A stretch of DNA of 53,651 nt from Candidatus Gottesmanbacteria bacterium (GTDB lineage Bacteria > Patescibacteriota > Microgenomatia > JACPZF01). Where the stretch lies: NCBI GenBank assembly GCA_016195615.1, contig JACPZF010000015.1, positions 1 to 53,651 of the forward strand, written 5' to 3'. The notes beneath the pieces are model-generated. The model saw only the letters and a list, made by a program, of their open reading frames with translations, had not been told where the DNA came from and ran no database searches. Both the position numbers and the translations under genes were made by a program. Positions within the stretch are counted from its first letter, which is position 1. Each line of letters starts with the position of its first letter. Below, in pieces: positions 34,828 through 49,855 of this stretch.

Positions 34828-36549
34828 GTGAAAAACGACAATAATGATCTTGCTAGAGTGCTTTTGTCGCAAAAGCTTCTTTCCCCCGAGCAAGCGGATT
34901 TAGTTCGTCTGGAAAGTGTTAATAAAGGCCAAAGAATTGAAGAGGTCATCAGGGCCCATAATTTTGTCGCGGAAGAACAACTAGCCAAAGCTAAAGCTGA
35001 GATTTTAGGCGTTTCCTACGTTTCTTTGGCGGCCAAAGGCATTTCCCCTGATATTTTAAATTACATTCCCGAACCAGTTGCCAGACGCTACATGGTATTG
35101 CCCTTTTCTTTTGACCAAAAAACGAGAATTCTTTCGGTAGCGATGAAAGATCCGGTGGACATTTCCGCCATTGAATTTCTAGAAAGCAAATCCGGTCTAG
35201 CCATCGAACCGTATCTGGCCCTAGAAAGCGAGCTTTCGCAAAAGATCGAAGAAGAATATTCCCAAAGTCTAACTTCGGAAGTCACGCAGGCATTAAATGA
35301 ATCAACTATTTCTACTAAAACCGAAGAAGATACCTCTAAATCCCTAGCCCAGACGATCACCGAAGCACCGATTGCCAAAATCGTTTCCACGATATTAGAT
35401 TACGCCGTCAAATCGCGCGCGTCAGATGTTCACATCGAACCCCAAGAAGAAAGAACCAGGGTGCGCTATCGTATCGACGGCATTTTGCACGAAAGATTGG
35501 CCTTGCCGAAAAAGGTCCACGACGCGGTCAGTTCCCGCATCAAAATTCTCGCCGACATGAAAATCGACGAGAGAAGAATTCCCCAGGATGGCCGTTTTTC
35601 CTTCTCCAGCGGTGATCAGGAGGTGGATTTGCGCGTTTCCTCGCTTCCTACCGTTTATGGTGAAAAAATTGTCATGCGGCTTCTGAAAAAAAGCGGCGGC
35701 GTTCCAACCTTGCCTGAACTTGGCTTAAGAGGAACGGCGCTAAAAAACCTGGAAAACGCCACACTTCGGCCCCACGGTATTATTTTAATTACCGGACCAA
35801 CCGGATCGGGAAAAACTACGACTCTCTACTCGATTTTAACCAAATTAAATACGGCGAAAGTCAACATCGTGACTTTGGAGGATCCGGTTGAATATCAAAT
35901 CGGTGGGGTTAATCAGGTCCAAATAAATCCGGCTGCCGGGTTAACTTTTGCTTCTGGGCTGCGTTCCTTTTTGCGTCAAGACCCTAACATTATTATGGTC
36001 GGTGAGATTCGGGACACAGAAACAACTGATTTGGCTATTCAGGCGGCCTTAACAGGGCACTTAGTATTTTCTACTCTTCATACCAACAACGCTTCCGGAG
36101 CTTTGCCCAGGCTTTTGGATATGCATGCAGAGCCTTATTTAGTCGCCTCGGCTCTTAACGCCGTGGTGGGTCAACGCGTAGTCCGACGGATTTGTAATTT
36201 TTGTAAAGAAGAATACGAACCGCCGGAGCCAATTGTCAGCGATCTAAAATTAGTCCTTGGTAAATTATTTCCTGACTCAGCGCAGCAAAAAACTAGCAAA
36301 CTTGTTCTCTATAAAGGTAAAGGCTGCGATGAATGCAGCGCTACCGGGTATCAAGGCCGAATTGGAGTTTATGAAGTATTGCCGATAGACGAAAAAGTGG
36401 GCAGATTGGTATTAGAGCACGCTTCGACCGGCGACATTGAAGCCAAAGCGATCGAGGAGGGTATGATTACGATGAAACAAGATGGGTATTTAAAAATTAT
36501 TGAAGGCATTACGACCGTGGAAGAAGTACTGCGGGTGGCGCAGGATTAA
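34828..36549 (+). CDS. pilB: type IV pilus assembly ATPase PilB (GspE family)
   Basis: N-terminal MshEN-like domain, Walker A GPTGSGKTTT, LEDPVEY, Walker B MVGEIRD, His box GHLVFSTLHTN and a tetracysteine CNFC..CDEC. GTG start. Confidence 0.9.
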   Translation: MKNDNNDLARVLLSQKLLSPEQADLVRLESVNKGQRIEEVIRAHNFVAEEQLAKAKAEILGVSYVSLAAKGISPDILNYIPEPVARRYMVLPFSFDQKTRILSVAMKDPVDISAIEFLESKSGLAIEPYLALESELSQKIEEEYSQSLTSEVTQALNESTISTKTEEDTSKSLAQTITEAPIAKIVSTILDYAVKSRASDVHIEPQEERTRVRYRIDGILHERLALPKKVHDAVSSRIKILADMKIDERRIPQDGRFSFSSGDQEVDLRVSSLPTVYGEKIVMRLLKKSGGVPTLPELGLRGTALKNLENATLRPHGIILITGPTGSGKTTTLYSILTKLNTAKVNIVTLEDPVEYQIGGVNQVQINPAAGLTFASGLRSFLRQDPNIIMVGEIRDTETTDLAIQAALTGHLVFSTLHTNNASGALPRLLDMHAEPYLVASALNAVVGQRVVRRICNFCKEEYEPPEPIVSDLKLVLGKLFPDSAQQKTSKLVLYKGKGCDECSATGYQGRIGVYEVLPIDEKVGRLVLEHASTGDIEAKAIEEGMITMKQDGYLKIIEGITTVEEVLRVAQD

Positions 36550-36590: not shown

Positions 36591-37652
36591 ATGGAACTTG
36601 CAACTTTATTACAAACCATCCTAACTGCGCGGGGTTCGGATCTACATTTATTGGCTAACCTCTTGCCGATGATTAGAGTTGATGGCGATCTAAGCCCCAT
36701 TGCGGGCCAAAACATGATCAGTGCCGACGATGTTAAGACGCTTTTGTTTTCCATTATGAGCGAGGAGCAAAAAGAATTATTTTTAGCTAATAAAGAGATT
36801 GATTTCTCCTATGCTTTTTCCGATGCGGCGCGGTTTCGCGTCAATGTTTATTGCCAAAAAGGGACTTTTGGAGCCGCTTTCCGTCTAATTCCCATGAAGA
36901 TACCATCGCTTACTGATATTAATTTGCCAGATATTACCCATGTCTTTGCCAGCTTAAAGCAGGGATTTATTCTCGTTACCGGGCCGACAGGACACGGCAA
37001 ATCTACTACTCTCGCCGCGATTATTAACGAAATCAACCGAACTAGAAGAACGCATATTGTAACAATTGAAGACCCGATTGAATATATTTTTAAACCCGAG
37101 TTAAGTATTATTTCTCAGCGCGAAATGCATCTCGATACCCATTCTTGGGATCTGGCGCTAAGGAGTGTTTTACGTGAAGATCCTGATGTGGTACTGGTTG
37201 GCGAGATGAGAGATCTCGAAACCATTCGCGCGGCGATGACGGTTGCCGAAACCGGCCATTTAGTTTTAGCAAGCCTGCATACTAACAGTGCGAGTCAGAC
37301 CATCGATCGTATCGTGGGGGTATTTCCAGAAGAGGAACAACAGCAAGTCAGATTGCAACTAGCGAGTACGTTGGAAGGAATAATTTCGCAAAGACTTATT
37401 CCTTTAGTAAGCGGCGGTCGCATCCCGGCGGTGGAAATCTTAACCGCTACGGCAGCGATTAAAACCGTCATTCGCGAGGGGAAAAATCATCTCATCGACA
37501 ACATCATTCAGACTTCGGCGGAATCGGGGATGATTTCTCTAGACAAATCGCTGGCGAGATTAGTACTTAACAATAAAGTTAGTAAAGATGTCGCCATGGC
37601 TTATTCTCTGCACCCCGAAGATTTTGTCAGCATCTTAAGAGAAAAGAAATAA
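36591..37652 (+). CDS. pilT: twitching-motility retraction ATPase PilT
   Basis: GSDLHL, GPTGHGKSTT, IEDPIEY, LVGEMRD and GHLVLASLHTN. Length is 353 aa. Confidence 0.9.
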   Translation: MELATLLQTILTARGSDLHLLANLLPMIRVDGDLSPIAGQNMISADDVKTLLFSIMSEEQKELFLANKEIDFSYAFSDAARFRVNVYCQKGTFGAAFRLIPMKIPSLTDINLPDITHVFASLKQGFILVTGPTGHGKSTTLAAIINEINRTRRTHIVTIEDPIEYIFKPELSIISQREMHLDTHSWDLALRSVLREDPDVVLVGEMRDLETIRAAMTVAETGHLVLASLHTNSASQTIDRIVGVFPEEEQQQVRLQLASTLEGIISQRLIPLVSGGRIPAVEILTATAAIKTVIREGKNHLIDNIIQTSAESGMISLDKSLARLVLNNKVSKDVAMAYSLHPEDFVSILREKK

Positions 37653-37655
37653 ATT

Positions 37656-38861
37656 ATGCCCATTTATCGATACAAAGTACGAGACCACGGGAGTAAAACG
37701 TTGCAAGGAAACATCGAAGCTAAAGACCCTCGGGTGGCGGCGGTGCTACTTCGCGAGCGGGGGCTTTTTATCATTGATATCGGTCTGCCGACAAAATTTA
37801 GCGTCGAAACCGTCAAGAGATATTTAACCAAAGTTTCCTATGGTGATATTGCGACTATGACGAGGCAGTTTGCGACGCTTATTACTTCCGGACTGCCGAT
37901 AATTGACGCGTTGTCTCTGCTTGGCGACCAAATGCAAAACCCCATACTTTCCGCTACGGTCGAAGGCATTAAACACGAAGTTGAAGGCGGATCGAATTTA
38001 GCAACGGCCTTTGAAAAACATCCCAATATTTTTAACCGTTTGTACATCTCACTTTTAAGAACCGGTGAGACTTCGGGAATGTTGGATAAAGTCTTAAGTA
38101 AATTAGCTGACAACATGGAAAAACAACGCGAATTTAATTCCAAAGTTAAAAGCGCTTTGGTCTACCCCATCATTGTTATCGGCGGCATGGGCTTAGTCGC
38201 TTTAATTATGATGATTTTCGTCATTCCCAAACTCACGGCTTTATACAAGGATTTAAACGTCGTTTTGCCCCTGCCGACGCGGATTTTAATCGCTGTCTCC
38301 AATTTTATGATTGGTTTTTGGTGGTTAATGATTTTAGCCATTTTCGGTTTAGGATTTCTTTATTCGGCTTGGCGCAAAACCGATCAGGGGCGCCAAATCA
38401 CCGATAGGCTTAAATTAAAAGTCCCGATCCTGGGACCTATTACGCAAAAAGTAAATCTGGCCCAGATTTGCCGTACCCTTGGCCTTCTCGTTGGCGCCGG
38501 CATTCCCATTATCGACAGCATTAATATTGTGGCTACGGCAACCGATAATGTTTTAATGGAAAAAGCTTTAAATTTTGCTTCCAAACACGTGGAAAAAGGA
38601 TTCCCTTTGGCGCAATCAATTGAACAAAAAGAGGTCTTTCCGCCGATTGTGGCCCAAATGATCAGGGTGGGCGAAGAAACCGGTAAATTAGACGATTCTC
38701 TTCTTAAACTTTCCTACTATTTTGAGAGCGAAAGCGAAGAGTTAATCAAGGGCTTGACAACTGCATTGGAGCCACTTATCATGATTGTATTGGGAGTGGG
38801 AGTTGGCTTTTTAGTCATCTCCATCATTCTTCCCATTTATAAAATTACCAGCGCGATATAA
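37656..38861 (+). CDS. pilC: type IV pilus platform protein PilC (GspF family)
   Basis: Two GspF repeats (..FATLITSGLPIIDAL.. and ..LGLLVGAGIPIIDSI..) and three TM segments. Length is 401 aa. Confidence 0.9.
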   Translation: MPIYRYKVRDHGSKTLQGNIEAKDPRVAAVLLRERGLFIIDIGLPTKFSVETVKRYLTKVSYGDIATMTRQFATLITSGLPIIDALSLLGDQMQNPILSATVEGIKHEVEGGSNLATAFEKHPNIFNRLYISLLRTGETSGMLDKVLSKLADNMEKQREFNSKVKSALVYPIIVIGGMGLVALIMMIFVIPKLTALYKDLNVVLPLPTRILIAVSNFMIGFWWLMILAIFGLGFLYSAWRKTDQGRQITDRLKLKVPILGPITQKVNLAQICRTLGLLVGAGIPIIDSINIVATATDNVLMEKALNFASKHVEKGFPLAQSIEQKEVFPPIVAQMIRVGEETGKLDDSLLKLSYYFESESEELIKGLTTALEPLIMIVLGVGVGFLVISIILPIYKITSAI

Positions 38862-38875
38862 GGAGGTTTAACAAT

Positions 38876-39451
38876 ATGAGGAAAGCCATCCAAAAAGGTT
38901 TTACGATGATCGAGCTTTTGGTGGTTATTGCGGTTATCGGCGTTATGGCCACCGCCGTTCTTTCAGCTATCAATCCTCTGGAACAAATCAATAAAGGCAA
39001 TGACACCGGTTTAAGATCAGATGCGGAGCAAGTCCTGGGTGCAGTAGATCGGTATTATTCATCATTAGCCTATTTCCCTTGGCAAAACGGGGCCAACGAT
39101 AACTTTGTCAACGTAGCCTGGCAAAACGTTATCGATCTAAATACTAATCGTTCGGCTTTAACCAATATGGAAAATACCCAGGAAATTAAACACGGATTTA
39201 CTCTCCGGCTGACAGATGTCAAGCGAACGCCGATTTATTTAATGTATGACAACAGTTCGGCTTCACCAACGATGTATGCTTGTTTTGTGCCCAAGTCAAA
39301 CTCGTTTTTGACAGAGGCATTTAATCGCTGCAAAGGTACAGCAGTTACGGCTGGGACGCCATTTGGAGCAACCGGCGAAGCATGTGCGGGGACTGTTGGA
39401 GCAAGTACAACTTGCAATACGACCAAAAACTGCTACGTTTGTCTGCCGTAA
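38876..39451 (+). CDS. type IV pilin (candidate major pilin)
   Basis: Strong SD aaggagg and the prepilin motif KG|FTMIELLVVIAVIGVMA. First pilin gene after pilBTC, with a Cys-rich C-terminus. Confidence 0.85.
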   Translation: MRKAIQKGFTMIELLVVIAVIGVMATAVLSAINPLEQINKGNDTGLRSDAEQVLGAVDRYYSSLAYFPWQNGANDNFVNVAWQNVIDLNTNRSALTNMENTQEIKHGFTLRLTDVKRTPIYLMYDNSSASPTMYACFVPKSNSFLTEAFNRCKGTAVTAGTPFGATGEACAGTVGASTTCNTTKNCYVCLP

Positions 39452-40437
39452 AAGGTTGGGCGATACAGAGCGCCGCGGCTTGTACCTAATTTTATAAGGA
39501 AACCTTCCTTAAGCAATTGACTTACATCATAATGAAGCGTGCTTTTAGGAATTTTTTGAAAACGGCGTTTGAGAAAATCAAAAGAAACAATTTGGTGATT
39601 TCTGACGATCTCTAAAATTTCCCGTCGCCTGGGAAGAAGCCAGTCCTCTACGGTTTCGGTTTTGGCATTTTTAAGTTTTTCCATGGTCTTATCAGTTTGG
39701 AATTGTAATCCCTCTAAAAAAAATTCCACAAATTCGGTGACGTCTTTTTTATTTAGAGCCAAAAGATCATAGTAAGTTTGCCTTTTTGATTCTAAATATT
39801 CTTCTAAAGATACTAGTCCGCGAAAACCAAACCCGGAATTTTTTAAAATTAAAGTGGCCAAAAGTCTTCCGGTCCGACCGTTTCCGTCTAAAAAGGGATG
39901 AATTTTTTCAAAGGCAAAATGGTAAGTGGCGGCGTTCACCGGACCCTCATCTTCTGAAGAATTTATTTTTGCTACCAAGGTTTTGATTAAGGAAGGTATC
40001 TTTGACGCCGGAGGTGTAAGATAAACTGCAACTTGGGCCTGACTAAAAATCGCGGAAGGTTCGCGGCGCCACTCTCCCGCTTCGGGGGAAAGATTGGCCA
40101 AAACATACCCATGCAGTTTAAGAATTGTCGAATAAGACAATTTTTTTGGTGCCTTGGAATAGACCCAAGTAAGGCCTTTCAGAACGTTGGCCACTTCAAT
40201 TTTAGCGATATTTTTGGCGTTCCTTTGTAAAGAGATAAAACTTAAGTCTTCCAGACGCAATTTGTTGCCCTCAATCCGGGCAGAAAAAAGCGAGCTTTTA
40301 AGAAGTGACTCGCGCCGGAGATTCTCTTCAAGATGAGGCGATGACGGCAGCAAAGCGATAACCCTAGCCATAACTTTCAGCTCTTCCATGGCTTTGGCGA
40401 TGACCTTTGTGCGGCGGTAGTAGTAATCCAATTTCAT
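39433..40437 (-). CDS. Fic-family protein (AMPylase-type) with C-terminal wHTH-like region
   Basis: Fic motif HPFLDGNGRTGRLL. Antisense to the pilus genes, with a convergent 19-nt overlap on the pilin gene 3' end. Confidence 0.85.
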   Translation of the reverse strand: MKLDYYYRRTKVIAKAMEELKVMARVIALLPSSPHLEENLRRESLLKSSLFSARIEGNKLRLEDLSFISLQRNAKNIAKIEVANVLKGLTWVYSKAPKKLSYSTILKLHGYVLANLSPEAGEWRREPSAIFSQAQVAVYLTPPASKIPSLIKTLVAKINSSEDEGPVNAATYHFAFEKIHPFLDGNGRTGRLLATLILKNSGFGFRGLVSLEEYLESKRQTYYDLLALNKKDVTEFVEFFLEGLQFQTDKTMEKLKNAKTETVEDWLLPRRREILEIVRNHQIVSFDFLKRRFQKIPKSTLHYDVSQLLKEGFLIKLGTSRGALYRPTFYGRQT

Positions 40438-40520: not shown

Positions 40521-41966
40521 ATGCTCTATCGTTTAGTTGATTTGGTTTTGGCCAAAAAAAATCTGGCGTTTTTTTTAATTCTTTTCATGCTGGGTTTGTT
40601 TGTGGTCTTCCCGACTTACGACCCGGATTTGGGCTGGCATATCGCTTACGGCAATTATTTTTGGCAAAACCATAAACTATTAACAAGCGATATTTTTTCC
40701 TGGACCCTAGCTGATTTTAAGTGGTTTAGCATTTCCTGGCCTTATGATCTTTTAGTAAGTTTGGTTTTTCCTAAAGGAGAATTTTTGGCCTTGTCATTAA
40801 TCGCGGTGGCAGTAATTCTTCTGACTTTTTGCTTTCTCGTCAAACCTTTTAAACTTTCCTTTTTTTGGTTAGTAATGGCATCGTTAGTATTTATTTTTTT
40901 TGTCCAACCACTAGCCAGCCCGGGTTTTAGAGTTCAGCTTTTTGAACTGCTTTTTTTAGCCGTAGCGACAAGTCTTATTTGGTCGTATGAAAAAGGTCAA
41001 AAAGTAGTAGTTTGGTACTTTCCTCTTTTAATGATCGGTTGGATCAATCTTCATGGCTCATTTATCATGGGACTCTTTTTAATCGGTTCTTACGTAGTTG
41101 TTAAAAACTTAAGTTCAACGTTAAACGCGCAGCAAAAAATAGTTTTAAATTTAATTTTACTACTTACTATTCTAGCTGTTTTTATCAATCCTTACGGTCT
41201 GGCGCTTTTTAAACAAATTGTAAATTATGCCCCCATTTTGCGAACTACCGGCGTTAATGAATGGCAGCCGGAAAGCATTTTTTCCGATAAGTGGCTGATG
41301 CTTTTAGTCTGGACGGCCCTCCTCATCGTTATCGTTTTAAAAAACCGCCGCGATCATTTTGGTTTGTATCAAGCTGTTATCGTTTTGCTATTTGCTTTTT
41401 TAGGTTTTAATTCGAGAAGAATGATCACGCCGTATGTGGTTGTTTCTTTACCCCTGGTATTAAATTTTATTCATGGTCTAAATTTTAAAATAAGCAAAAA
41501 AGCAAATTTGATGGCTTTAGTAATTATCATGAGTGCTATCGTCAATGGACTTTTTAATCGACTTCCCTCTTTGCATTTTTTAAAGACCAATCTTAATGAA
41601 TACTGCCAAATTGGACTGCATTGTTCTCCGGAAGCGATGAGCTTTATTAAAAAAAATCCTTTACCGAAAAAAAGTCTAACTTTTTATAACTGGGGCGGTT
41701 ATTTAATTTGGCAAACGGAAAGTCGCGTTTTTGTCGACGGCCGGATGGACCAATGGGAAAAAGAGGGTTTTAGTGCTTTTAGCGATCACGAAAAGATTTT
41801 GCAAAAAGACGATTTAGATCTTTTTAATAAATATAATTTCGACGCCGTCTATATCCCACCTACTTTTCGTTTGGCAGCGTATCTAGAAAAACAAACAGAG
41901 CAAGGGAAATGGGCTAAGGTTTTTGGCGATGATCGCGCGGTCATTTTTGAGAAAAAAAAGTTATGA
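40521..41966 (+). CDS. polytopic membrane protein, GT-C-like glycosyltransferase candidate
   Basis: About 11 TM segments, an acidic motif in the first extracytoplasmic loop (YDPDLGWH) and a soluble C-terminal domain (YNWGGYLIW..FVDGRMDQW). The family assignment is tentative. Confidence 0.4.
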   Translation: MLYRLVDLVLAKKNLAFFLILFMLGLFVVFPTYDPDLGWHIAYGNYFWQNHKLLTSDIFSWTLADFKWFSISWPYDLLVSLVFPKGEFLALSLIAVAVILLTFCFLVKPFKLSFFWLVMASLVFIFFVQPLASPGFRVQLFELLFLAVATSLIWSYEKGQKVVVWYFPLLMIGWINLHGSFIMGLFLIGSYVVVKNLSSTLNAQQKIVLNLILLLTILAVFINPYGLALFKQIVNYAPILRTTGVNEWQPESIFSDKWLMLLVWTALLIVIVLKNRRDHFGLYQAVIVLLFAFLGFNSRRMITPYVVVSLPLVLNFIHGLNFKISKKANLMALVIIMSAIVNGLFNRLPSLHFLKTNLNEYCQIGLHCSPEAMSFIKKNPLPKKSLTFYNWGGYLIWQTESRVFVDGRMDQWEKEGFSAFSDHEKILQKDDLDLFNKYNFDAVYIPPTFRLAAYLEKQTEQGKWAKVFGDDRAVIFEKKKL

Positions 41967-43519
41967 AAAAAACTATTTTACTAGCGATCGCGGTTTACTT
42001 AATAAGCAGTATCGGCCTACTTTATGGTTATCTCCACACGCCTTCCGGGATGATTTTTTTAGGCGGGCATTTGCCCAATTCCGGTGAAATCCTAAATATG
42101 GTTTTACCGCAGCTTCGGGAAGGACATTTGTTAATTAAAAACCTCTTTACCTCTGAACCGCAGCCCAGAATTTTTTTTGCTCCTTCTTATTTACCAATGG
42201 CGTTACTGGGTCAAATTTTGCCTGTCAATAATTTTCTCCTTGTACAGTTAGGACGTTTTTTTTACACGATCTTATTTTTTATTATTGCTTTTAAATTTTT
42301 TAAACTCCTTAAACTTAAAAATATATTTTGGGCGTTTTTGCTTTTAGGTTTTTCCTCGGGGTTTGGCCTTTTTTTAAAATGGGGAATTCCTAATTCGGCG
42401 GATTTATGGATTCCTGAGATCAACACTTTTCATAGTCTTCTTTTTTCTCCCAATATTATTTTTAGCCAAATACTGATGATGTTGTCGCTTATGACTTTTT
42501 TTAAAGGGTATACCTTACAAAAATGGAAATACTTTTTGCTTTCAGGAGCGTTTGCTACTCTTTTAGCGTTTGAACACCAGTTTGACGCCGTAACCGTACT
42601 CCTTACTATTTTGATATTTCTTCTTTTGACCGAAACAAAATTTAAAATTTGGCTTAAAAAAATATTCTCGCTTTGGTCGATTTTTTTCGGACCAATACTC
42701 GTCTTTGGGCTTTATTATTTTCTGATTAAACAAAACTGGTCATCATTGATTTGGACTAACCAAAACCATCTTTACTCCCCACCTCTACTCTCCTACATTT
42801 CGGGATTTGGTCTAATTGGCATCGGTGCTTTTTTGGCAATTATTAAATCTAAGAACAAAAAAAATTCTTCTTATCATCTTATTTTGTCCTGGCTGATAGC
42901 CGTAATAATTGTTATTTATAGTCCTTTGCCTTTTCAAAGAAGATTTGGCGAAGGAATGCATATTCCTCTGGTCATACTAAGTTCTTACTATCTTTGGGAA
43001 TTAGTCCAAAAGTTAAAAAAAATTCCTTTTCGGCTTGGCCTTTTTTTCCTGCTGCTATTTTCAGCAGCAACCAATTTTTATTTGCTTTATCTTGATATCA
43101 AAGCCTACCAACTAAGTCCCAATGAATCACCATTTTATATTTATCAGGAAGACCTAACGGCTCTTTCGTGGTTAAGAAATAACTCCAGCGACAAAGATGT
43201 TATTTTAGCCGATGGGCTCTACAGTCCTCTGATTCCGGGATTAATAGGACGTACGGTTTATTTCGGCCATTCGGTCGGGACTGCACTGACGATTGATCCG
43301 GAAAAAAAGACCGAGCAGGCGAAGAATTTTTTCTTTTATGATTCGGACGAAAAACGTCAGAAATTTTTGGAAAATAATAAAATAACTTTTTTCTTTTTGG
43401 GGAAAAAGGCAGCCGCCGCGGAAGATTTTTCCCTCTGGGAGGGGAAAGATTATTTTAGAAAAGTTTTCGAAAGACAAGACGTTAAAGTTTTTAAGGTAAA
43501 AAATTCTTTGATAATTTGA
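41963..43519 (+). CDS. polytopic membrane protein, ArnT/PMT-like (GT-C) candidate
   Basis: About 12 TM segments plus a C-terminal soluble domain, coupled to the preceding gene by a 4-nt overlap. The family assignment is tentative. Confidence 0.35.
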   Translation: MKKTILLAIAVYLISSIGLLYGYLHTPSGMIFLGGHLPNSGEILNMVLPQLREGHLLIKNLFTSEPQPRIFFAPSYLPMALLGQILPVNNFLLVQLGRFFYTILFFIIAFKFFKLLKLKNIFWAFLLLGFSSGFGLFLKWGIPNSADLWIPEINTFHSLLFSPNIIFSQILMMLSLMTFFKGYTLQKWKYFLLSGAFATLLAFEHQFDAVTVLLTILIFLLLTETKFKIWLKKIFSLWSIFFGPILVFGLYYFLIKQNWSSLIWTNQNHLYSPPLLSYISGFGLIGIGAFLAIIKSKNKKNSSYHLILSWLIAVIIVIYSPLPFQRRFGEGMHIPLVILSSYYLWELVQKLKKIPFRLGLFFLLLFSAATNFYLLYLDIKAYQLSPNESPFYIYQEDLTALSWLRNNSSDKDVILADGLYSPLIPGLIGRTVYFGHSVGTALTIDPEKKTEQAKNFFFYDSDEKRQKFLENNKITFFFLGKKAAAAEDFSLWEGKDYFRKVFERQDVKVFKVKNSLII

Positions 43520-43557: not shown

Positions 43558-44073
43558 ATGCGTAAATCTGCCTTTACCCTTATCGAACTAATGATTGCCG
43601 TAACCATTGTTGCCATAATTGCTGGAATTTTTGCCTTAAATGTGTCTGGAAATTTAGCTAAGGCCCGAGATGCAAAAAGGAAAAGTGATTTAAGAGCTCT
43701 TAAAACTTCCCTAGATCTTTATTACAATGTTAACAACCTCTACCCTCCTTCGGAATCGAGTTGGCCGCCTTTTTCCGGGGATAATCGCATTAAAGGCTGT
43801 GGGGCTTTAACTACACCTCTTAATTGCAATTGGGGAACGCCATGGGTTCAGGATGGAGTAACCTATATGGGAGTCTTACCTAAAGATCCTCAATCGCAAT
43901 GGTCCTACTATTATCTACGTGCGCCGCAAGGCCGCTTAAGTTATATTATGGTGGCTAAATTGGAAAGAGGTTTTGATCCGGATACTGCCGCGTCGCAAAG
44001 CAATTGTCAGGATACGACTTATGGTTTTGTCTATTCTGACCCATCGTGGTATGTGGTGTGTGATGCGAGGTAG
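43558..44073 (+). CDS. prepilin-type N-terminal cleavage/methylation domain protein (pilin)
   Basis: MRKSA|FTLIELMIAVTIVAIIAG. Extended -10 TGcTAGTAT lies 9 nt upstream of the ATG. Confidence 0.8.
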   Translation: MRKSAFTLIELMIAVTIVAIIAGIFALNVSGNLAKARDAKRKSDLRALKTSLDLYYNVNNLYPPSESSWPPFSGDNRIKGCGALTTPLNCNWGTPWVQDGVTYMGVLPKDPQSQWSYYYLRAPQGRLSYIMVAKLERGFDPDTAASQSNCQDTTYGFVYSDPSWYVVCDAR

Positions 44074-44078
44074 ATAAT

Positions 44079-44537
44079 ATGAAAAGTAAGGCATTTTCGT
44101 TAATTGAACTGTTGGTAGTTATCTCAATTATGGCTATCTTAGGTAGTTTAGCTCTCAGTGCTTTTTCTACCGCCAGAAAAGAAGCACGCGATACGCAAAG
44201 AAAAAATGAATTAACCCAGTATAAAACGGCTCTCGAGTCCTATTATGTTTCCAACAGTACCTACCCTGTTTATTCCGGCAGTCCGGCGATTTCCAATCAG
44301 TTTCAAGGTATTTTTGATCAAAACAGCTCTTTTATTCAAATCTATATGGCCGGAACGACTTTGCAGGGGGTAAACGCCGCTGATAATTACGTTTATTACT
44401 ATTTAAGCGACGGTGTCAAATATAAACTTTGGGGCAAAATTGAATTAAACGATTATTTTGAAATTTGCTCCAATGGTAAAAGCGGAGCGTTAAAATCGAT
44501 AAATTTAAATCTATCCAGTGTTGCTTGCGACTTATGA
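44079..44537 (+). CDS. pilin-like protein
   Basis: MKSKA|FSLIELLVVISIMAILG. Confidence 0.8.
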   Translation: MKSKAFSLIELLVVISIMAILGSLALSAFSTARKEARDTQRKNELTQYKTALESYYVSNSTYPVYSGSPAISNQFQGIFDQNSSFIQIYMAGTTLQGVNAADNYVYYYLSDGVKYKLWGKIELNDYFEICSNGKSGALKSINLNLSSVACDL

Positions 44538-44998
44538 TAAGAAAAAAACGGGGATATACGCTTTTAGAAATTTTAATGGTGATGGGAATAATTGGCATTC
44601 TTCTTGCAGTATCTGCATCGGCTTTTTTGTCAGCTCGATTAACGGCCAGAGACGCCCGAAGAAAAACTGATTTGGAGCAGATAAGAGGTGCAATAGAAAC
44701 ATATAAGGCAGACAAAAATGTCTATCCCGGATCTCAAAGCGTGCCTACTCAAAGCAGTGGCAATGTCAGTTCTCTCGCCACCTTTCTGGTTAGCGGTTCT
44801 AATCAGTATATTTCCGCCATACCCTCGGATCCGATTTCAACCATGCAATATTATTACATTCCTACAGCCACCGGCTATTATTTATGCGCCTCACTGGAAG
44901 GCCTCCCGAATACTGCCTCGACTAATTGCGGCAGCGGTGATTGTGGTGTCAGCAGCAATTTGGCGAAAGTCTGCAATTATGAAGTCAAAAATCCCTAA
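44525..44998 (+). CDS. pilin-like protein
   Basis: ..KKRG|YTLLEILMVMGIIGILLA. Confidence 0.8.
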   Translation: MRLMIRKKRGYTLLEILMVMGIIGILLAVSASAFLSARLTARDARRKTDLEQIRGAIETYKADKNVYPGSQSVPTQSSGNVSSLATFLVSGSNQYISAIPSDPISTMQYYYIPTATGYYLCASLEGLPNTASTNCGSGDCGVSSNLAKVCNYEVKNP

Positions 44999-45584
44999 GT
45001 TTTGGCATTTTGGATTTACCTTAATCGAATTATTAGTGGTTTTTTCTTTGGCGGTAATTTTTGCCGTCGTTACGATTCCGTCTTATATTAATTTTAATAG
45101 AGAACAAGAGGTTAAGCAGTCAGCTTTGTTTCTTAAATCGCAAATAAGAAAGGCGCAAAATAGCAGTTTATCCGGTGAAAAATCTACTACCAGTTGTACT
45201 CAAAGCGATGTTTTGACGGGTTTTTTTGTCGAGCTGGCAGTAAACCAAAAAAGCTTCGTCTATGGCGGCCGCTGCGGCGATATTGATTTTAACAAAACCA
45301 CGCTTAAATTGCCTTCCTCCAATACTAAAATATCGGGTTTTTACGACGCTACATCTTTGCCTACGCCTCCCTGCAGTGCTTTTACTCCCGGCAATGGTTC
45401 TCTACGATTAAATTACCGCCCCGTCGCTAAAGGGATTGATTTTTACGATTGGAATAGCGCCATCGCTAGCGGCTCCAATCTAAATTACGGTAAAATCGCC
45501 ATTAAGATATCCGATGCCAACGCCAACGATTATTTTATTATCATTAGCTCTGGTGGAGAAATTTATGACACGGCAAGCTGTTAA
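44979..45584 (+). CDS. minor pilin-like protein
   Basis: Starts at ATG 44979 (MKSKIPKFWHFG|FTLIELLVVFSLAVIF). The track start 44718 is an out-of-frame overlap with the preceding pilin gene. Confidence 0.7.
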   Translation: MKSKIPKFWHFGFTLIELLVVFSLAVIFAVVTIPSYINFNREQEVKQSALFLKSQIRKAQNSSLSGEKSTTSCTQSDVLTGFFVELAVNQKSFVYGGRCGDIDFNKTTLKLPSSNTKISGFYDATSLPTPPCSAFTPGNGSLRLNYRPVAKGIDFYDWNSAIASGSNLNYGKIAIKISDANANDYFIIISSGGEIYDTASC

Positions 45585-46020
45585 AAAGAAACCTGGTCAA
45601 AGCATGATCGAAACCCTAATCGCTTTGGGAATTGGGGTTTTAATTATTGTGGCGCTGGTCCAAAGCATTGTCACGAGCATTAAAAATTCCCAGTTTGCCA
45701 AAAATCAGACGCTCGCGACCAGATTTAGCCAAGAAGGAATAGAAATTATAAGAAGTGTGCGCGACAGACTAGGCTGGCCAAGCTTTTATAATAGTTATAA
45801 CACTAAGACCAAATGTTTAGGCTCCAACGATTATACAACTTGGGGCGATACTCTTCCCTGTACGATAAATACCGGCGACATCTTTTCCCGACAGGCAAGT
45901 TTTTCTGATCCCAGCGGATCGGGCAATCAAATCTTAGTCAATGTTACTACTGCTTGGACCGATACGACAGGAAGTCACAAATCCGAACAACAGACGTACT
46001 TAACAAAATGGCAGCAATAA
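45565..46020 (+). CDS. minor pilin-like protein (PilV-like)
   Basis: ATG 45565 follows SD ggtggag (MTRQAVKKKPGQS|MIETLIALGIGVLII). Confidence 0.7.
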   Translation: MTRQAVKKKPGQSMIETLIALGIGVLIIVALVQSIVTSIKNSQFAKNQTLATRFSQEGIEIIRSVRDRLGWPSFYNSYNTKTKCLGSNDYTTWGDTLPCTINTGDIFSRQASFSDPSGSGNQILVNVTTAWTDTTGSHKSEQQTYLTKWQQ

Positions 46021-46023
46021 AAT

Positions 46024-46638
46024 ATGTCGATACGAGTTTTGCACTTAAATATGTTACTTTGCTCTAATCGTCATTCTGGTAAGCGAAGCGCATCCAGAAT
46101 CAGATTCTGGACAAGCCAGAATGACAGTAGAAAAGCCCCAGGTTACACTTTAATCGAAATTTTAATTGTTTTTAGTATCATCGGCTTGGTTTCGGTTTTT
46201 GGTTTGAATTTTTTAACAACAATTCTTCGGGGTAATTCCAAAACTGCCGTCACCACGGAAATAAAACAAAACGGCAATTACGCGCTCGATATTATCAGCT
46301 ACTTCATTAGAAACGCCCTAAGTATTGATAATTGCTCAGCGTCTTCGCTTTCACTTCGGCAATGGGATAATTCCATCGTAACTTTTTTGCTCCTTCCCCA
46401 GGTGGATGCAGTATCAAGCAGATTAAACGCCAGAATAGCGAGCAATTCCTCGGTTTTAACTAACGCCGACGCGACTAACGGCGTTAGCGTGTCGGGTTTA
46501 AGTTTTACTTGCACGAACACCTCTCCTCCCGTTGTCTCGATTGGTTTTCAAGTTAGCCAGTCAGCTTTTTTGCCCGATCGACCGGAACTAAAAGGCATGG
46601 TCAATTTTCAAACCAGCGTGTCTTTACGGACCTATTAA
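46024..46638 (+). CDS. minor pilin-like protein whose leader peptide is encoded by a MITE copy
   Basis: Prepilin motif ..KAPG|YTLIEILIVFSIIGLV. No start codon lies between the repeat element and the motif, so translation must begin at 46024 or 46051 and read through the element. Confidence 0.65.
   Translation: MSIRVLHLNMLLCSNRHSGKRSASRIRFWTSQNDSRKAPGYTLIEILIVFSIIGLVSVFGLNFLTTILRGNSKTAVTTEIKQNGNYALDIISYFIRNALSIDNCSASSLSLRQWDNSIVTFLLLPQVDAVSSRLNARIASNSSVLTNADATNGVSVSGLSFTCTNTSPPVVSIGFQVSQSAFLPDRPELKGMVNFQTSVSLRTY
46069..46125. repeat. nested-palindrome MITE-like element, shortest copy
   Basis: CGTCATTCTGGtaagcgaagcgcATCCAGAATCaGATTCTGGAcaagCCAGAATGAC, 57 nt or exactly 19 codons. Confidence 0.8.
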
Positions 46639-46672
46639 ACATTGATTTTATTTTAGATACTTTATAGAATAA

Positions 46673-47587
46673 ATTGAGGGAGTAAATCTGTCAAAAAAAC
46701 AAAACGGTCAAGTTATTATTATTATTCTTCTAATTTTAGTCGTAGTGCTTACGGTGGGTCTGTCAATTGCTACGAGAACCGTAACTGACATCAAACTGGC
46801 CCAGCAAACAGAACTTTCCAGTCGGGCCTTTAATGCCGCAGAAGCAGGAATAGAATCAGTTCTTTCGGGCCAAAGTCCGATCGGCTCGGTTACGGTCGGT
46901 TTGGGGGGAAATACTTCCACTTACAATGTCACGGTGCAAACAGTTGGTGGATCAAGCGGTCAAGCGTTTGTATTTAATAAAGCCATCGGCAAGGATGACA
47001 CTCAGCAAATCTGGTTTATTGGTCATAATACAGATAACAGTTTAAATTTAAACGATCCGAAGAATTTTAACGCTAGTAGTCTTTGGGTTTTTTGGGGTAA
47101 TACCGGACAGCCGGCGGGAAATACGTCTCCACCAATTACTCCCGCCCTGGAGGCAACTGCCATCTATAAGGATGCTTCGGGTTTTAAGTTGGCCAGAGCT
47201 GTTTATGATCCCAACGCCAGCCGCGCCGCCAGCAATAATTTTATTTCCTCTGGTATTGAAAGTGGCGGCGGTTATACCAACAGTAAAATTCAGTTTCGAA
47301 GACAGATTGATTTATCAACTTCCCCGTTTTCCATTAGCGGTATTGGTACGACGAGTACCCTCTATGCATTACGATTGCGCTTATTATATAACGATTCACC
47401 GCAGCTTCTTGGAGCGCAACCATACGGAGTCAACGATACTTTTCCAGTACAAGGCCGTTTGATTTCCTCAACCGGCAGTTCAGGTGATGTTTTTCGGAAA
47501 GTTGAAGTTTTGGAGTCATTTCCGGCGCTTCCTCCTATTTTTGACTACGTTTTATTCAACGGGTCGTCAAATTCACTTTCAAAATGA
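46673..47587 (+). CDS. PilX-like minor pilin / pilus-associated protein (non-canonical start likely)
   Basis: The frame is open from 46673 and encodes ..KKQNGQVIIIILLILVVVLTVGLSIATR.. (PilX-type N-terminal helix). SD gagggag lies at 46676-46682. The only in-frame candidates before the helix are ATT 46673 and CTG 46688, and the track GTG 46745 would truncate the helix. Confidence 0.55.
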   Translation: MEGVNLSKKQNGQVIIIILLILVVVLTVGLSIATRTVTDIKLAQQTELSSRAFNAAEAGIESVLSGQSPIGSVTVGLGGNTSTYNVTVQTVGGSSGQAFVFNKAIGKDDTQQIWFIGHNTDNSLNLNDPKNFNASSLWVFWGNTGQPAGNTSPPITPALEATAIYKDASGFKLARAVYDPNASRAASNNFISSGIESGGGYTNSKIQFRRQIDLSTSPFSISGIGTTSTLYALRLRLLYNDSPQLLGAQPYGVNDTFPVQGRLISSTGSSGDVFRKVEVLESFPALPPIFDYVLFNGSSNSLSK

Positions 47588-47694: not shown

Positions 47695-48510
47695 ATGAAA
47701 GCTGAAAAAATAATCATCGCCATCTTGGCTGTTTTAATACTAACGCTGGATTTTTTCGGCTCCTTTTATTTTATAGCCGGGATTAAGCCAAGCGACTTAA
47801 TAGCGAGAATTAATCCTCAACAAGTCGTCAATAAGCTTTTAATAAACCCTCACCTATCTGACGATAAGGTTACAGAAACAGAAACAAATAGCGGCTCAAA
47901 CCTACAATTGATAAGCGATGATTTAATAAAAGATAAGATGATTCCCGTTATTAATTCGCGGAAATTATCGCTAAAATTAAGAAGCAGTCAGGAGTACTTA
48001 AATCTTACTCCCAAAGTTAAGATTAAGGCCCCGGATTTTAAAAACGAAAGGATATATTGGGAGAGAGATTTTGATTTAGTAAGTGTTAAAGGAAACAATA
48101 ATAATTTGTACGAGTTCGATATCAGTGATTTTTTTCAGAAAGGCACGTTTCTTTTGGATATAAATTTTTATGACGAAAAAGGAACTAGCGTTTTTTCGCT
48201 TTTGGATCAGGAAGTAATTTTGGGACCAAGAGCAAAAATTACCAATGCGACGGTTAAAACTTTAAATAATAAAGATTTTGTTTTAAATGTTTCCGTGGAT
48301 GATGAACAGCTCCCGCCGGATCCGAGTTGGGAAATAATCGCCGTGGTTTGCAGCAAAGATCAATGTGCGTTTGCCAAAAAAGATCTGGCAGAAGGATGGC
48401 CAAAAGAGCTGAAGCTTGATAGGAAAATAGAAGGTAGAAATTTGACTATTACTTTAATTATCAAGGCCAAGGAGTTAAAAGGCTATGTTAACTCTTATAT
48501 CAGTCATTAA
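47695..48510 (+). CDS. membrane-anchored hypothetical protein of the pilus locus
   Basis: N-terminal TM segment (IIIAILAVLILTLDFFGSFYFIA) and a beta-rich ectodomain. No family recognised. Confidence 0.55.
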   Translation: MKAEKIIIAILAVLILTLDFFGSFYFIAGIKPSDLIARINPQQVVNKLLINPHLSDDKVTETETNSGSNLQLISDDLIKDKMIPVINSRKLSLKLRSSQEYLNLTPKVKIKAPDFKNERIYWERDFDLVSVKGNNNNLYEFDISDFFQKGTFLLDINFYDEKGTSVFSLLDQEVILGPRAKITNATVKTLNNKDFVLNVSVDDEQLPPDPSWEIIAVVCSKDQCAFAKKDLAEGWPKELKLDRKIEGRNLTITLIIKAKELKGYVNSYISH

Positions 48511-49855
48511 GCGAATATTTTTTCTGGCTTTAATTTTTGGCATAGGAATATTTACGCTTGTAAACACGAAGCCTCGTCCAGCTTTTGCAGAATGTAATTG
48601 TCCCGGCAATGATTGTGATCATTGCGGCGGCGAGGGTGTAAATTGGGGAAGAAACAGCGGCTGTGGAGATTTTTGCAGTCAAAATCCTGATTCTTGCGGT
48701 ACGCCTGGAACTTGCAATAGTGGTAGCGGTGGTGATTCTGGAGGCGGTAACGGTGGTGGGTGTAACCCTGGGCCTACTAATTGCGGTTCATGTTCGGTTT
48801 CCTGTGATGGTGGCATACAAACCTGTAGTGATGGTTGTAACACGACCACGCAACCATGCAACACTCAAACCTGTTGCAATTCCAACGATTGGAGTGCGTG
48901 GAGCCCGGTTTGCACCTCGGAAAACTGCGACAAGGCGACTCAGTCAAGAACAAATGCCTGTGGGACAACAGGGACGAGGAAATGCAGCTGCACCATTACC
49001 TATCCCTCGACGACACCAACGCCGCCGGTTTCAACCGCTCCAACGCCATCGGACACTACGCCGACCCCCTCCCCGGCCACGACTGGGTTTATCAGTTGGT
49101 TTAAAACCAAAGGCGGTGATGTTCATAGCAATAAAGATATCATCGTTTCTTTGCCTTCACTTTTAGAACGTTTTGCCAGTTTTCTCGTCACCGTAAACGG
49201 CTTGTCTTCGTTTGCTGCTGGGAGTGAATACGATGCCCGGCCAGATTTGGCAAGCGAACGAAAATGGTATTGGTACTCGCCGCCTTACGGCAAAGTGACT
49301 TTTTCGGAATTAGAAGGATTTTTTGAATACTACACGCATTTTAAGCCGGTGACAAAAAAAATAGCGATTAATGAGATAACCAATGGTTTTTTGGCCACCG
49401 AGGCGGGAAATGGCAAGACTATACCTATTATAGAGATAGATCCCAGCACCAGTGCTGTTAGCCTTGCCGAGGATTTATCTCTGACGGGAAACCGTCAGCT
49501 GGTTTTGTATATAAATGGCGATCTAGAAATTAAAAATAACATCTTTTTTAAAGACGACGCCGGGGTAATATTTGTGGTCAAAGGAAATCTCAACATCAGT
49601 TCCTCGCCGATTGAGGTTGACGGAATGTTTCTGGTTGATAAAAATGTTAATACCACGGACAAAAATGTTGATACGCCGCTTCTTATAAAAGGAGCAATCA
49701 TGTCAAGCAGTAGAGGTAAAATTTTTGCGCAGTCGAGAAAAGTAAGTAATGTTCTGGTTCCTTCGGAATATATTATTTTTGAACCAAAATATTTGATTAA
49801 ATTTAGCCAAGTTCTCGGTAGAACGTCTTTAATGTGGAAAGAAGTGGCTCCGTAA
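48485..49855 (+). CDS. Cys-rich secreted/anchored protein with thrombospondin type-1-repeat-like motifs (adhesin candidate)
   Basis: N-terminal TM/signal, CSVSCDGGIQTC and DWSAWSPVCTSENCDKATQSRTNAC (WSxWS..C..C....R...C pattern). A Pro/Thr linker TTPTPPVSTAPTPSDTTPTPSP precedes a ~270-aa C-terminal domain. Confidence 0.6.
   Translation: MLTLISVIKRIFFLALIFGIGIFTLVNTKPRPAFAECNCPGNDCDHCGGEGVNWGRNSGCGDFCSQNPDSCGTPGTCNSGSGGDSGGGNGGGCNPGPTNCGSCSVSCDGGIQTCSDGCNTTTQPCNTQTCCNSNDWSAWSPVCTSENCDKATQSRTNACGTTGTRKCSCTITYPSTTPTPPVSTAPTPSDTTPTPSPATTGFISWFKTKGGDVHSNKDIIVSLPSLLERFASFLVTVNGLSSFAAGSEYDARPDLASERKWYWYSPPYGKVTFSELEGFFEYYTHFKPVTKKIAINEITNGFLATEAGNGKTIPIIEIDPSTSAVSLAEDLSLTGNRQLVLYINGDLEIKNNIFFKDDAGVIFVVKGNLNISSSPIEVDGMFLVDKNVNTTDKNVDTPLLIKGAIMSSSRGKIFAQSRKVSNVLVPSEYIIFEPKYLIKFSQVLGRTSLMWKEVAP

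Follow-up and report, generated by a model that had tools for sequence, protein, structure and literature searches.

How the episymbionts of the Candidate Phyla Radiation (CPR, or Patescibacteria) recognize their hosts and hold on to them is an open question, and to our knowledge their host-binding molecules are still largely unknown. Type IV pili (T4P) have been implicated in the host attachment of these bacteria (PMC11623550). The window that we analyzed, a stretch of 53,651 nt from a Candidatus Gottesmanbacteria contig (JACPZF010000015.1), has at the end of its T4P locus, the only one of the genome, a gene that bears on this question: an open reading frame (ORF) at 48485..49855 of the forward strand, which encodes a 456-aa protein that we kept as P0001. 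A sequence-only reading of the window had proposed that this protein is a pilus-associated adhesin with thrombospondin type-1 repeats (TSRs), a hallmark of extracellular adhesion in eukaryotes. Our comparisons indicate that genuine, though degenerate, TSRs occur in this pilus-operon protein of Patescibacteria, and that a C-terminal domain (CTD) belonging to a large and so far unannotated family follows them.

Degenerate thrombospondin type-1 repeats in P0001

The ORF, its two motifs and the local GC rise described in the sequence-only reading are all real. The motifs, CSVSCDGGIQTC (residues 103-114, 48791-48826) and DWSAWSPVCTSENCDKATQSRTNAC (residues 135-159, 48887-48961), lie in the Cys-rich part of the protein, which has 22 Cys residues in total, all before residue 170, and none in its C-terminal 255 residues. 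Those at positions 100, 103, 107, 114, 118, 125 and 130 in the first module region and at 131, 143, 148, 159, 167 and 169 in the second could supply three disulfides per module, as in the six-Cys TSR framework.

The evidence for TSR homology comes from the relatives of P0001. We found 14 homologues (40-76% identity), all from metagenomes or Patescibacteria metagenome-assembled genomes (MAGs) and none of them annotated, several of which carry canonical TSR motifs at the alignment positions equivalent to those of P0001. The module of one of them, P0003, matched the TSRs of human thrombospondin-1 with E = 1.1e-16 (single-domain independent E-value down to 5.9e-8), and this protein scored 21.5 bits against Pfam TSP_1, whose cut-off is 21.6, over profile positions 2-49 of 49. 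In another homologue, P0012, the module that is the positional equivalent of the P0001 WSAWS module matched thrombospondin-1 (E = 7.5e-9), and the protein also matched Pfam TSP1_ADAMTS (E = 3.8e-4). The two-module region of P0001 is collinear with the P0003 region at 61% identity (E = 6e-27), and its module 2 matched the canonical module of P0012 by BLASTP (E = 2e-5). Moreover, an hhalign comparison placed the derived-module profile in register with three thrombospondin-1 TSRs at W..W / C....C / Q.R...C (P = 8.2e-4, probability 24%). As judged by these alignments, TSR homology is established transitively, from P0001 to P0003 and P0012 and on to thrombospondin-1, and not by a direct profile match.

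A closer comparison outlined how far the two copies have diverged. Module 2 keeps W136-x-x-W139 and one Arg (R156 in Q-S-R-T-N), neither of which is found in module 1. One residue has been inserted between C143 and C148 of module 2, its RxR is reduced to a single Arg, and its third strand is truncated. By its alignments, the region is a pair of TSR-derived modules, both degenerate; the domain family is a known one, but these members are new and their host is unusual. Congruently, an AlphaFold model of the region alone (residues 92-176) had a mean predicted local distance difference test score (pLDDT) of 82.3 and contained two beta-hairpins, with one hairpin at model residues 19-34 (module 1) and a pLDDT of 83-92 over module 2. 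Its best Foldseek matches in the PDB, all weak, were complement C6 (E = 0.052, probability 0.94), midkine a and b, and Unc5A, and the full-length model gave the same TSR-type families. A search of the PDB with P0001 itself by phmmer returned semaphorin-5A alone (E = 0.58).

Several results weigh against this assignment. The sequence-only reading had named the lack of a TSP_1 (PF00090) match as something that would speak against its own proposal, and formally that is what we obtained: neither whole P0001 nor its excised Cys-rich piece matched this profile at E<=10, and a six-frame PF00090 scan of the genome that carries P0001 gave zero matches at E<=1e-3. No other Pfam or NCBIfam family matched P0001 or its pieces. 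The fold comparison, also suggested in that reading, went partly its way: the top matches are of TSR type and the fold is not unrelated to TSRs, but no Foldseek match reached E<=1e-3 with either the region-only or the full-length model. The TSR-like reading is upheld through the homologues and fails as a direct profile assignment.

The likeness could instead be a chance feature of a Cys/Gly-rich, low-complexity region that is unstructured or forms an unrelated disulfide knot. Besides the missing TSP_1 match and an hhalign probability of just 24%, this explanation can draw on a module-only profile of 12 homologues that found nothing among the PDB sequences at E<=1, although that profile is dominated by the derived variant. 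It is difficult to reconcile with the collinear, 61% identical region of P0003 and its canonical TSR, or with a confident region-only model whose best fold matches are TSR proteins. It also has to face the rarity of the motif: a TSR-like regular expression matched only at this site in the 462,088 six-frame ORF residues of the whole genome, and the motif arose in 15 of 20,000 composition-preserving shuffles of residues 36-176 (0.075%). The motif is not a by-product of composition. We hold a chance origin to be highly improbable, and a chance TSR resemblance is essentially excluded.

Other TSRs exist in the phylum but are rare. PF00090 matches were present in 8/401 of its genomes and in 0/14 control genomes, and the matching Patescibacteria proteins are other secreted Cys-rich proteins with fully canonical repeats. 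Secreted Cys-rich proteins with canonical TSRs (e.g., QWSDWSGWSACNTTCGAGTQSRSRSC) are encoded at L081 (G272:C17), L082 (G350:C14) and L083 (G033:C75). Our literature search found no paper linking thrombospondin type-1 repeats with Patescibacteria.

Predicted signal peptide and base composition

The sequence-only reading had taken the hydrophobic N-terminus of P0001 for an anchor. This end of the protein has K9/R10, a 17-residue hydrophobic core and an A33-F34-A35/E36 site, and the homologues repeatedly show an AxA-type site just ahead of their first Cys motif. Because this conserved site precedes the first Cys motif, a Sec signal peptide cleaved at AFA/E is more likely than an anchor. Sec-type N-termini are also found in most CTD superfamily members. 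P0001 has neither a prepilin G/FxxxE motif nor a class III signal peptide, as judged with a detector that finds the seven neighboring pilins, and it has no Pfam N_methyl match. This detector, a calibrated regular expression, recovered 7/7 prepilins and gave zero false positives over the 849 kb of the genome (88% complete), in which it found exactly seven prepilin genes, all of them in the P0001 locus. P0001 is most likely exported by Sec as an extracellular protein of modular build, and the bacterium that makes it is one of the Patescibacteria (CPR, Microgenomates-like).

At the predicted mature N-terminus lies a C-x-C-P-G-x-x-C-D-H-C motif (residues 37-48, 48593-48628), which is present in 6 of the 15 sequences of the homologue alignment (A1), namely P0001, P0002, P0005, P0006, P0009 and P0012. 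Its four Cys and one His could form a metal site or a disulfide knot.

The GC content is 0.51-0.56 over 48650-49250 against a window average of ~0.40, a compositional shift in which the sequence-only reading saw a possible sign of horizontal acquisition. For residues 36-170, the GC expected from the residue content and background codon usage is 0.536 and the observed value 0.516; for the Pro/Thr linker, the expected value is 0.613 and the observed one 0.644. The excess is located at codon position 2 (0.70-0.87), and GC at codon position 3 (0.43) is that of the background. Since the amino-acid composition of the region fully accounts for the GC rise, we rejected a horizontal transfer inferred from composition. 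Composition is no evidence for horizontal acquisition; the distribution of TSRs is patchy and compatible with more than one origin.

A large family of C-terminal domains

The Pro/Thr linker and the domain of unknown type that the sequence-only reading had placed after the repeats are both present, but the domain comprises 255 aa and not ~270. An exhaustive search by profile gave 2073 cluster representatives at E<=1e-3, of which 589 remained at E<=1e-10. Their lengths range from 130 to 2720 aa, and what they have in common is their C-terminal 120-255 residues; in 147 of the 159 examined, the match ended exactly at the last residue of the protein. The modules preceding the CTD in other members include Laminin_G_3, F5/8-C discoidin, PKD, CARDB, Big_2, fn3 and TSP1_CCN, and such a succession of modules and CTD makes up an architecture typical of adhesins. 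The distribution check suggested in the sequence-only reading showed that the CTD family is phylum-wide: we detected the CTD in 130/401 sampled Patescibacteria genomes and 113/320 genera, with nearly all genomes of the same class having it. All members with an annotation are listed as "hypothetical protein" and come from Patescibacteria, Microgenomates, Gottesmanbacteria or Curtissbacteria. With the alignment of the close family, a search for related loci returned just five.

The AlphaFold full-length model, built on the shallow alignment of 15 sequences, has a beta-rich core with pLDDT >90 at residues 290-390. With Foldseek, the CTD matched the DUF3494 ice-binding beta-solenoids weakly (E = 0.15, probability 0.96), and its sequence profile reached the DUF3494 structures 4NU2 and 4NU3 at a likewise weak E = 0.2-0.5. 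A viral fold library gave a single compact match, also to a DUF3494 protein (E = 1.7), and nothing significant. The whole-family and CTD profiles searched against the PDB returned just a spurious match of the Pro/Thr linker and sub-threshold matches to ice-binding proteins. DUF7305 (PF23981) recognized 10 of 25 diverse CTD members at E<=1 (best E = 4.3e-5), and P0001 scored 10.8 bits against it (E = 0.16), short of the gathering score of 27 bits. By these profile scores, the CTD is a distant relative of DUF7305 and not a member of it, and it belongs to no described family; its core is predicted to be a beta-solenoid distantly related to both DUF7305 and DUF3494. No paper mentioning DUF7305 came up in our literature search. 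A further candidate relative, the Thermus ComZ-type beta-solenoid tip protein, was rejected after no sequence or fold search matched it.

The most conserved part of the domain is its end. The tail LMWKEVAP has the highest mean information content of the CTD (2.55 bits over 159 representatives), with W451, E453 and P456 nearly invariant, and G403, R418, E428, P434 and again E453 are nearly invariant across the domain. These residues bear on the possibility that the solenoid is an enzyme, such as a polysaccharide lyase/hydrolase-like beta-helix acting on the host cell wall, or that it presents a DUF3494-type ice- or surface-binding face, with the TSRs serving for targeting or as a spacer. The conserved positions, the resemblance to ice-binding solenoids and far weaker Foldseek matches to PL6 alginate lyase and pectate lyase (E = 2-9) would suit an active CTD. 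All of these fold and profile matches, however, have E>0.1, Pfam and NCBIfam recognize no catalytic family, and the conserved residues concentrate in the tail and the final 60 residues rather than lining a solenoid face. Moreover, variable binding modules joined to a constant C-terminal module are more typical of anchoring or docking domains. We regard an enzymatic or surface-active CTD as improbable, and an enzymatic beta-helix as the weaker of the rivals to an adhesin role.

Three observations on individual CTD proteins deserve mention. The protein encoded at L081 has a diverged CTD at its C-terminal end, and the same strand of that genome carries a regular CTD gene at a distance of ~5 kb. 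P0027, a 158-aa protein from a 2112-bp NCBI contig, has a C-terminal stretch of 75 residues nearly identical to the tail region of P0001 and an N-terminus carrying PF17827; this gene call on a short contig is probably truncated or chimeric. Finally, the genome of P0001 encodes a paralogue of 712 aa (L006; G000 contig C55:4780-6918, reverse strand) with the same CTD, ending in WTEIAP, a Cys-rich N-terminus and an fn3-like middle part; a gene for a GT-C-like membrane protein lies downstream.

Gene neighborhood and proposed role

The position of the P0001 gene at the end of a pilus locus was described correctly in the sequence-only reading: the gene is preceded by PilB, PilT, PilC and seven prepilin genes and followed by a convergent argS. 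Five loci of the TSR-bearing subfamily had adequate flanks (the window, L001, L003, L007 and L009; 40-68% identity). In all five, the order is five to seven prepilin genes, a PilX-like gene, a gene for a single-pass membrane protein and the TSR/CTD gene, usually followed by a convergent argS. The PilX-like gene is two genes upstream of the TSR/CTD gene in 5/5 loci and the single-pass membrane protein gene directly upstream in 5/5, with gene overlaps of -25 to +3 nt. Throughout the subfamily, the TSR/CTD gene shares an operon with these two genes, is translationally coupled with them and stands at the 3' end of the minor-pilin operon. In three further loci (L052, L071 and L080), a PilX-like gene lies directly upstream of a CTD gene.

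On this synteny, the domain architecture and the analogy with known pilus adhesins, we favor, with even confidence, a role of P0001 as a secreted TSR-bearing adhesin that would be tethered to the pilus or to the cell surface. In such a scheme, P0001 would be exported by Sec and its signal peptide removed. The mature protein would then consist of a disulfide-rich N-terminal end with the two degenerate TSRs, a flexible Pro/Thr linker and the CTD. The CTD and its tail may tether it to the surface apparatus of its own cell, most plausibly to the minor-pilin/PilX-like complex of the pilus, as the tails of PilC/PilY1 do, or otherwise to the coupled membrane partner. The TSR end of P0001, variable and rich in disulfides, would project outward on the Pro/Thr linker and bind a ligand on a host or partner cell. 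In Kingella PilC1/PilC2, the conserved last ~10 residues dock onto PilX by beta-strand augmentation (PMC13711793), and Saccharibacteria bind their hosts by means of T4P and PilX-type proteins (PMC11623550). For the TSR-bearing subfamily, we favor pilus tethering through the PilX-like/minor-pilin complex. The tail falls in a segment of the monomer model with pLDDT <50 (residues 445-456), and its conservation at such low model confidence agrees with a tail that takes on order when bound to a partner; the same pattern is reported for the tails of PilC1/PilC2 (PMC13711793).

A number of findings speak against pilus docking. The low pLDDT of the tail could stem instead from the shallow alignment of 15 sequences. 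In the wider CTD superfamily, just 3 of the 40 sampled loci had at least two same-strand prepilin genes upstream, and the gene of the C55 paralogue is preceded by two small proteins with an N-terminal transmembrane (TM) segment, with no pilins nearby. We rejected a general pilus linkage of the CTD on the 3/40 count, and because of this count outside the subfamily and of the paralogue without pilins, it would be unsafe to take the CTD as such for a pilus-docking module. The pilus association proposed in the sequence-only reading is supported for the subfamily, by synteny conserved in 5/5 loci, and does not extend to the CTD at large. A second pattern is more common: 28/50 CTD genes (56%) have a tightly coupled upstream gene for a small bitopic protein with one N-terminal TM segment, against a background of 5.8% among long ORFs genome-wide in this genome (odds ratio ~21, Fisher p ~1e-14, for loci that are not fully independent). 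These upstream partners have no detectable sequence similarity beyond close relatives and share architecture and position alone. This pairing across the superfamily points equally to anchoring in the cell envelope.

P0001 may accordingly be viewed as an envelope-anchored surface protein that is independent of the pilus, in which the CTD binds the ectodomain of the coupled membrane protein, the wall or an S-layer, and the position in the operon reflects co-regulation only. The bitopic pairing, the 37 of 40 sampled superfamily loci without an upstream prepilin run and the neighborhood of the C55 paralogue all agree with such anchoring. The tail, however, is nearly invariant while the bitopic partners have no detectable sequence conservation, so that the tail probably contacts something conserved, and a PilX-like gene lies upstream of CTD genes in eight loci. 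As for the missing synteny, pilC of Neisseria and Kingella is often located away from the pilin genes; PilC-type adhesins being so placed, its absence is compatible with pilus association. We consider envelope anchoring to be unlikely on balance, yet a serious contender and the main rival of the pilus-tethered adhesin.

A broader proposal would make the CTD with its W-x-E-V-A-P tail a phylum-wide docking adaptor, which would place interchangeable binding modules (TSR, ConA-like lectin, discoidin, PKD, Ig-like) on the T4P tip via the PilX-like pilin by beta-strand augmentation, with a fold unrelated to PilC/PilY1. Each episymbiont would then have swappable tip adhesins setting its host range, and the ancestral or "resident" one among them would be the TSR subfamily, which still has its gene within the minor-pilin operon. 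We find this extension doubtful and put it forward as a clear minority view.

The analysis leaves P0001 as a testable candidate for the host-cell attachment of ultra-small Patescibacteria/CPR bacteria. What is new beyond this protein is a large unannotated CTD family, with more than 2000 clusters and a presence in about one third of the sampled genomes, whose members are candidate surface adhesins by architecture and gene pairing. The most interesting lead lies in this family, with the membrane partner coupled to it and its invariant tail, and two testable interaction hypotheses can be put forward: the CTD tail may bind the PilX-like pilin or the coupled single-pass membrane protein.

Other features of the locus

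The features of P0001 and of the locus are collected in Table 1.

Table 1. Coordinates of P0001 segments and of genes in the type IV pilus locus (window positions).
Feature	Position	Strand	Remarks
PilB	34828-36549		
PilT	36591-37652		
PilC	37656-38861		
First prepilin gene	38876-39451	+	one of the seven genes found by the prepilin detector
Fic-domain gene, convergent	39433-40437	-	Pfam Fic, E = 4e-20
Two polytopic membrane proteins, 481 and 518 aa, translationally coupled	40521-43519		no Pfam match
Six prepilin genes	43558..46638	+	Pfam N_methyl and NCBIfam matches
PilX-like minor pilin, AFNAAEAG motif	46673..47587	+	sequence reading; homologues in L001 and L003 carry PilX_N
Single-pass (N-terminal TM) membrane protein, 271 aa	47695..48510	+	overlaps start of P0001 gene by 26 nt
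P0001, predicted signal peptide, residues 1-35	48485..48589	+	K9/R10, hydrophobic core 11-27, A33-F34-A35/E36 site; helix 2-27 in AlphaFold model
P0001, variable Cys/Gly-rich N-terminal segment, residues 36-98	48590..48778	+	poorly conserved in alignment except CxCPG..CDHC; pLDDT <50
P0001, TSR-derived module 1, residues 99-131	48779..48877	+	collinear with P0003; WxxW strand and Arg residues lost
P0001, TSR-derived module 2, residues 132-173	48878..49003	+	W136-S-A-W139, C143, C148, Q154-S-R156-T-N-A-C159, then shortened C-terminal half
P0001, Pro/Thr-rich linker, residues 172-201	48998..49087	+	GC at codon position 2 = 0.87; pLDDT <50
P0001, conserved CTD, residues 202-456	49088..49852	+	starts W-F-K-T-x-G-G-D-V-H-S-N; predicted beta-solenoid-like core ~290-430
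P0001, invariant tail L-M-W-K-E-V-A-P, residues 449-456	49829..49852	+	most conserved CTD block

The Fic gene and the first pilin gene share ~19 nt at the 3' end of the latter. The second of the polytopic membrane proteins (41963-43516) had no sequence match in the PDB, and large unannotated genes similar to the polytopic pair precede the pilins in L003 and not in L001. The pair may be glycosyltransferases of pilins or surface proteins; a link to the modification of TSR Trp or Ser is pure speculation. The PilX-like gene has no ATG, GTG or TTG ahead of its hydrophobic helix. Its frame opens after a TAA at 46670, the candidate starts are just an ATT at 46673 and a CTG at 46688, and a GAGGGAG Shine-Dalgarno sequence lies immediately upstream; the homologues in L001, L003 and L009 have an ordinary ATG start. 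The 271-aa single-pass membrane protein had no Pfam or NCBIfam match. At L007 (7784-9248), which holds the closest reference-genome homologue of P0001 (68% identity), the gene is split into ORFs of 409 and 101 aa, which is a frameshift or an assembly error. The label of the corresponding MAG, "uncultured Gammaproteobacteria", is probably wrong, the locus being a typical Patescibacteria pilin operon.

Comparison with known systems

The reference for the repeats is the TSR family (PF00090), as in human thrombospondin-1 (TSR2-3, PDB 1LSL), semaphorin-5A, properdin, complement C6 and Plasmodium CSP/TRAP. The homologues P0003 and P0012 have WSxWSxCSxxCGGGxQxRxxxC modules of this kind, and module 2 of P0001 has the WxxW, the CxxxxC pair and the Q-x-R-x-x-x-C in register with thrombospondin-1. 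Like eukaryotic TSRs, the P0001 modules sit in a secreted protein of adhesion-type architecture. Unlike the classical ones, they belong to a bacterial protein, both copies are degenerate and lack a Pfam match, and the C-mannosylation and O-fucosylation of eukaryotic TSRs are not expected. The core of the CTD (~residues 320-410) weakly resembles the DUF7305/DUF3494 solenoids (FfIBP 4NU2, TisAFP 5B5H), whereas its WFKTxGGDVHSN and EPKYL...W-x-E-V-A-P segments have no counterpart there.

Among pilus-borne adhesins, those of Saccharibacteria TM7x, PilX1 and PilX2, are proposed T4P tip adhesins from the same phylum-level group, in which T4P mediate host binding (PMC11623550). Both are large proteins with accessory domains, non-canonical signal peptides and a predicted lectin-like binding, and their genes lie at the ends of pilin loci (PMC11623550). 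In contrast to P0001, PilX1 and PilX2 are pilin-like, with an N-terminal helix joined to a jelly-roll or beta-propeller domain; here, the PilX-like protein has a gene of its own, and the TSR/CTD protein, encoded two genes further downstream, is a different one, of the Sec-secreted type. PMC11623550 makes no mention of a TSR or CTD protein.

The comparison with PilC/PilY1 (PilC1/PilC2 of Neisseria and Kingella, PilY1 of Pseudomonas and Myxococcus) extends over more features. Like them, P0001 is a non-pilin with a Sec-type signal peptide that is encoded with minor pilins and PilX, and it has a variable N-terminal part, a conserved C-terminal part and a highly conserved extreme tail, which in PilC1/2 docks on PilX (PMC13711793). 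It differs in having no sequence or fold relationship with them, their C-terminal domain being a beta-propeller and that of P0001 a predicted beta-solenoid; P0001 had no PilC/PilY match in Pfam or NCBIfam, and no PilY1 structure was among its fold matches. With 456 aa, it is also far smaller than they are, the genes of most CTD superfamily members are located away from pilins, and pilus docking is here suggested by analogy. As judged from its gene position, sequence layout and model, P0001 appears to resemble a PilC/PilY1-type non-pilin adhesin without the beta-propeller that defines them. If the proposed docking holds true, the CTD would represent a second, independently evolved way to attach non-pilin adhesins to type IV pili.

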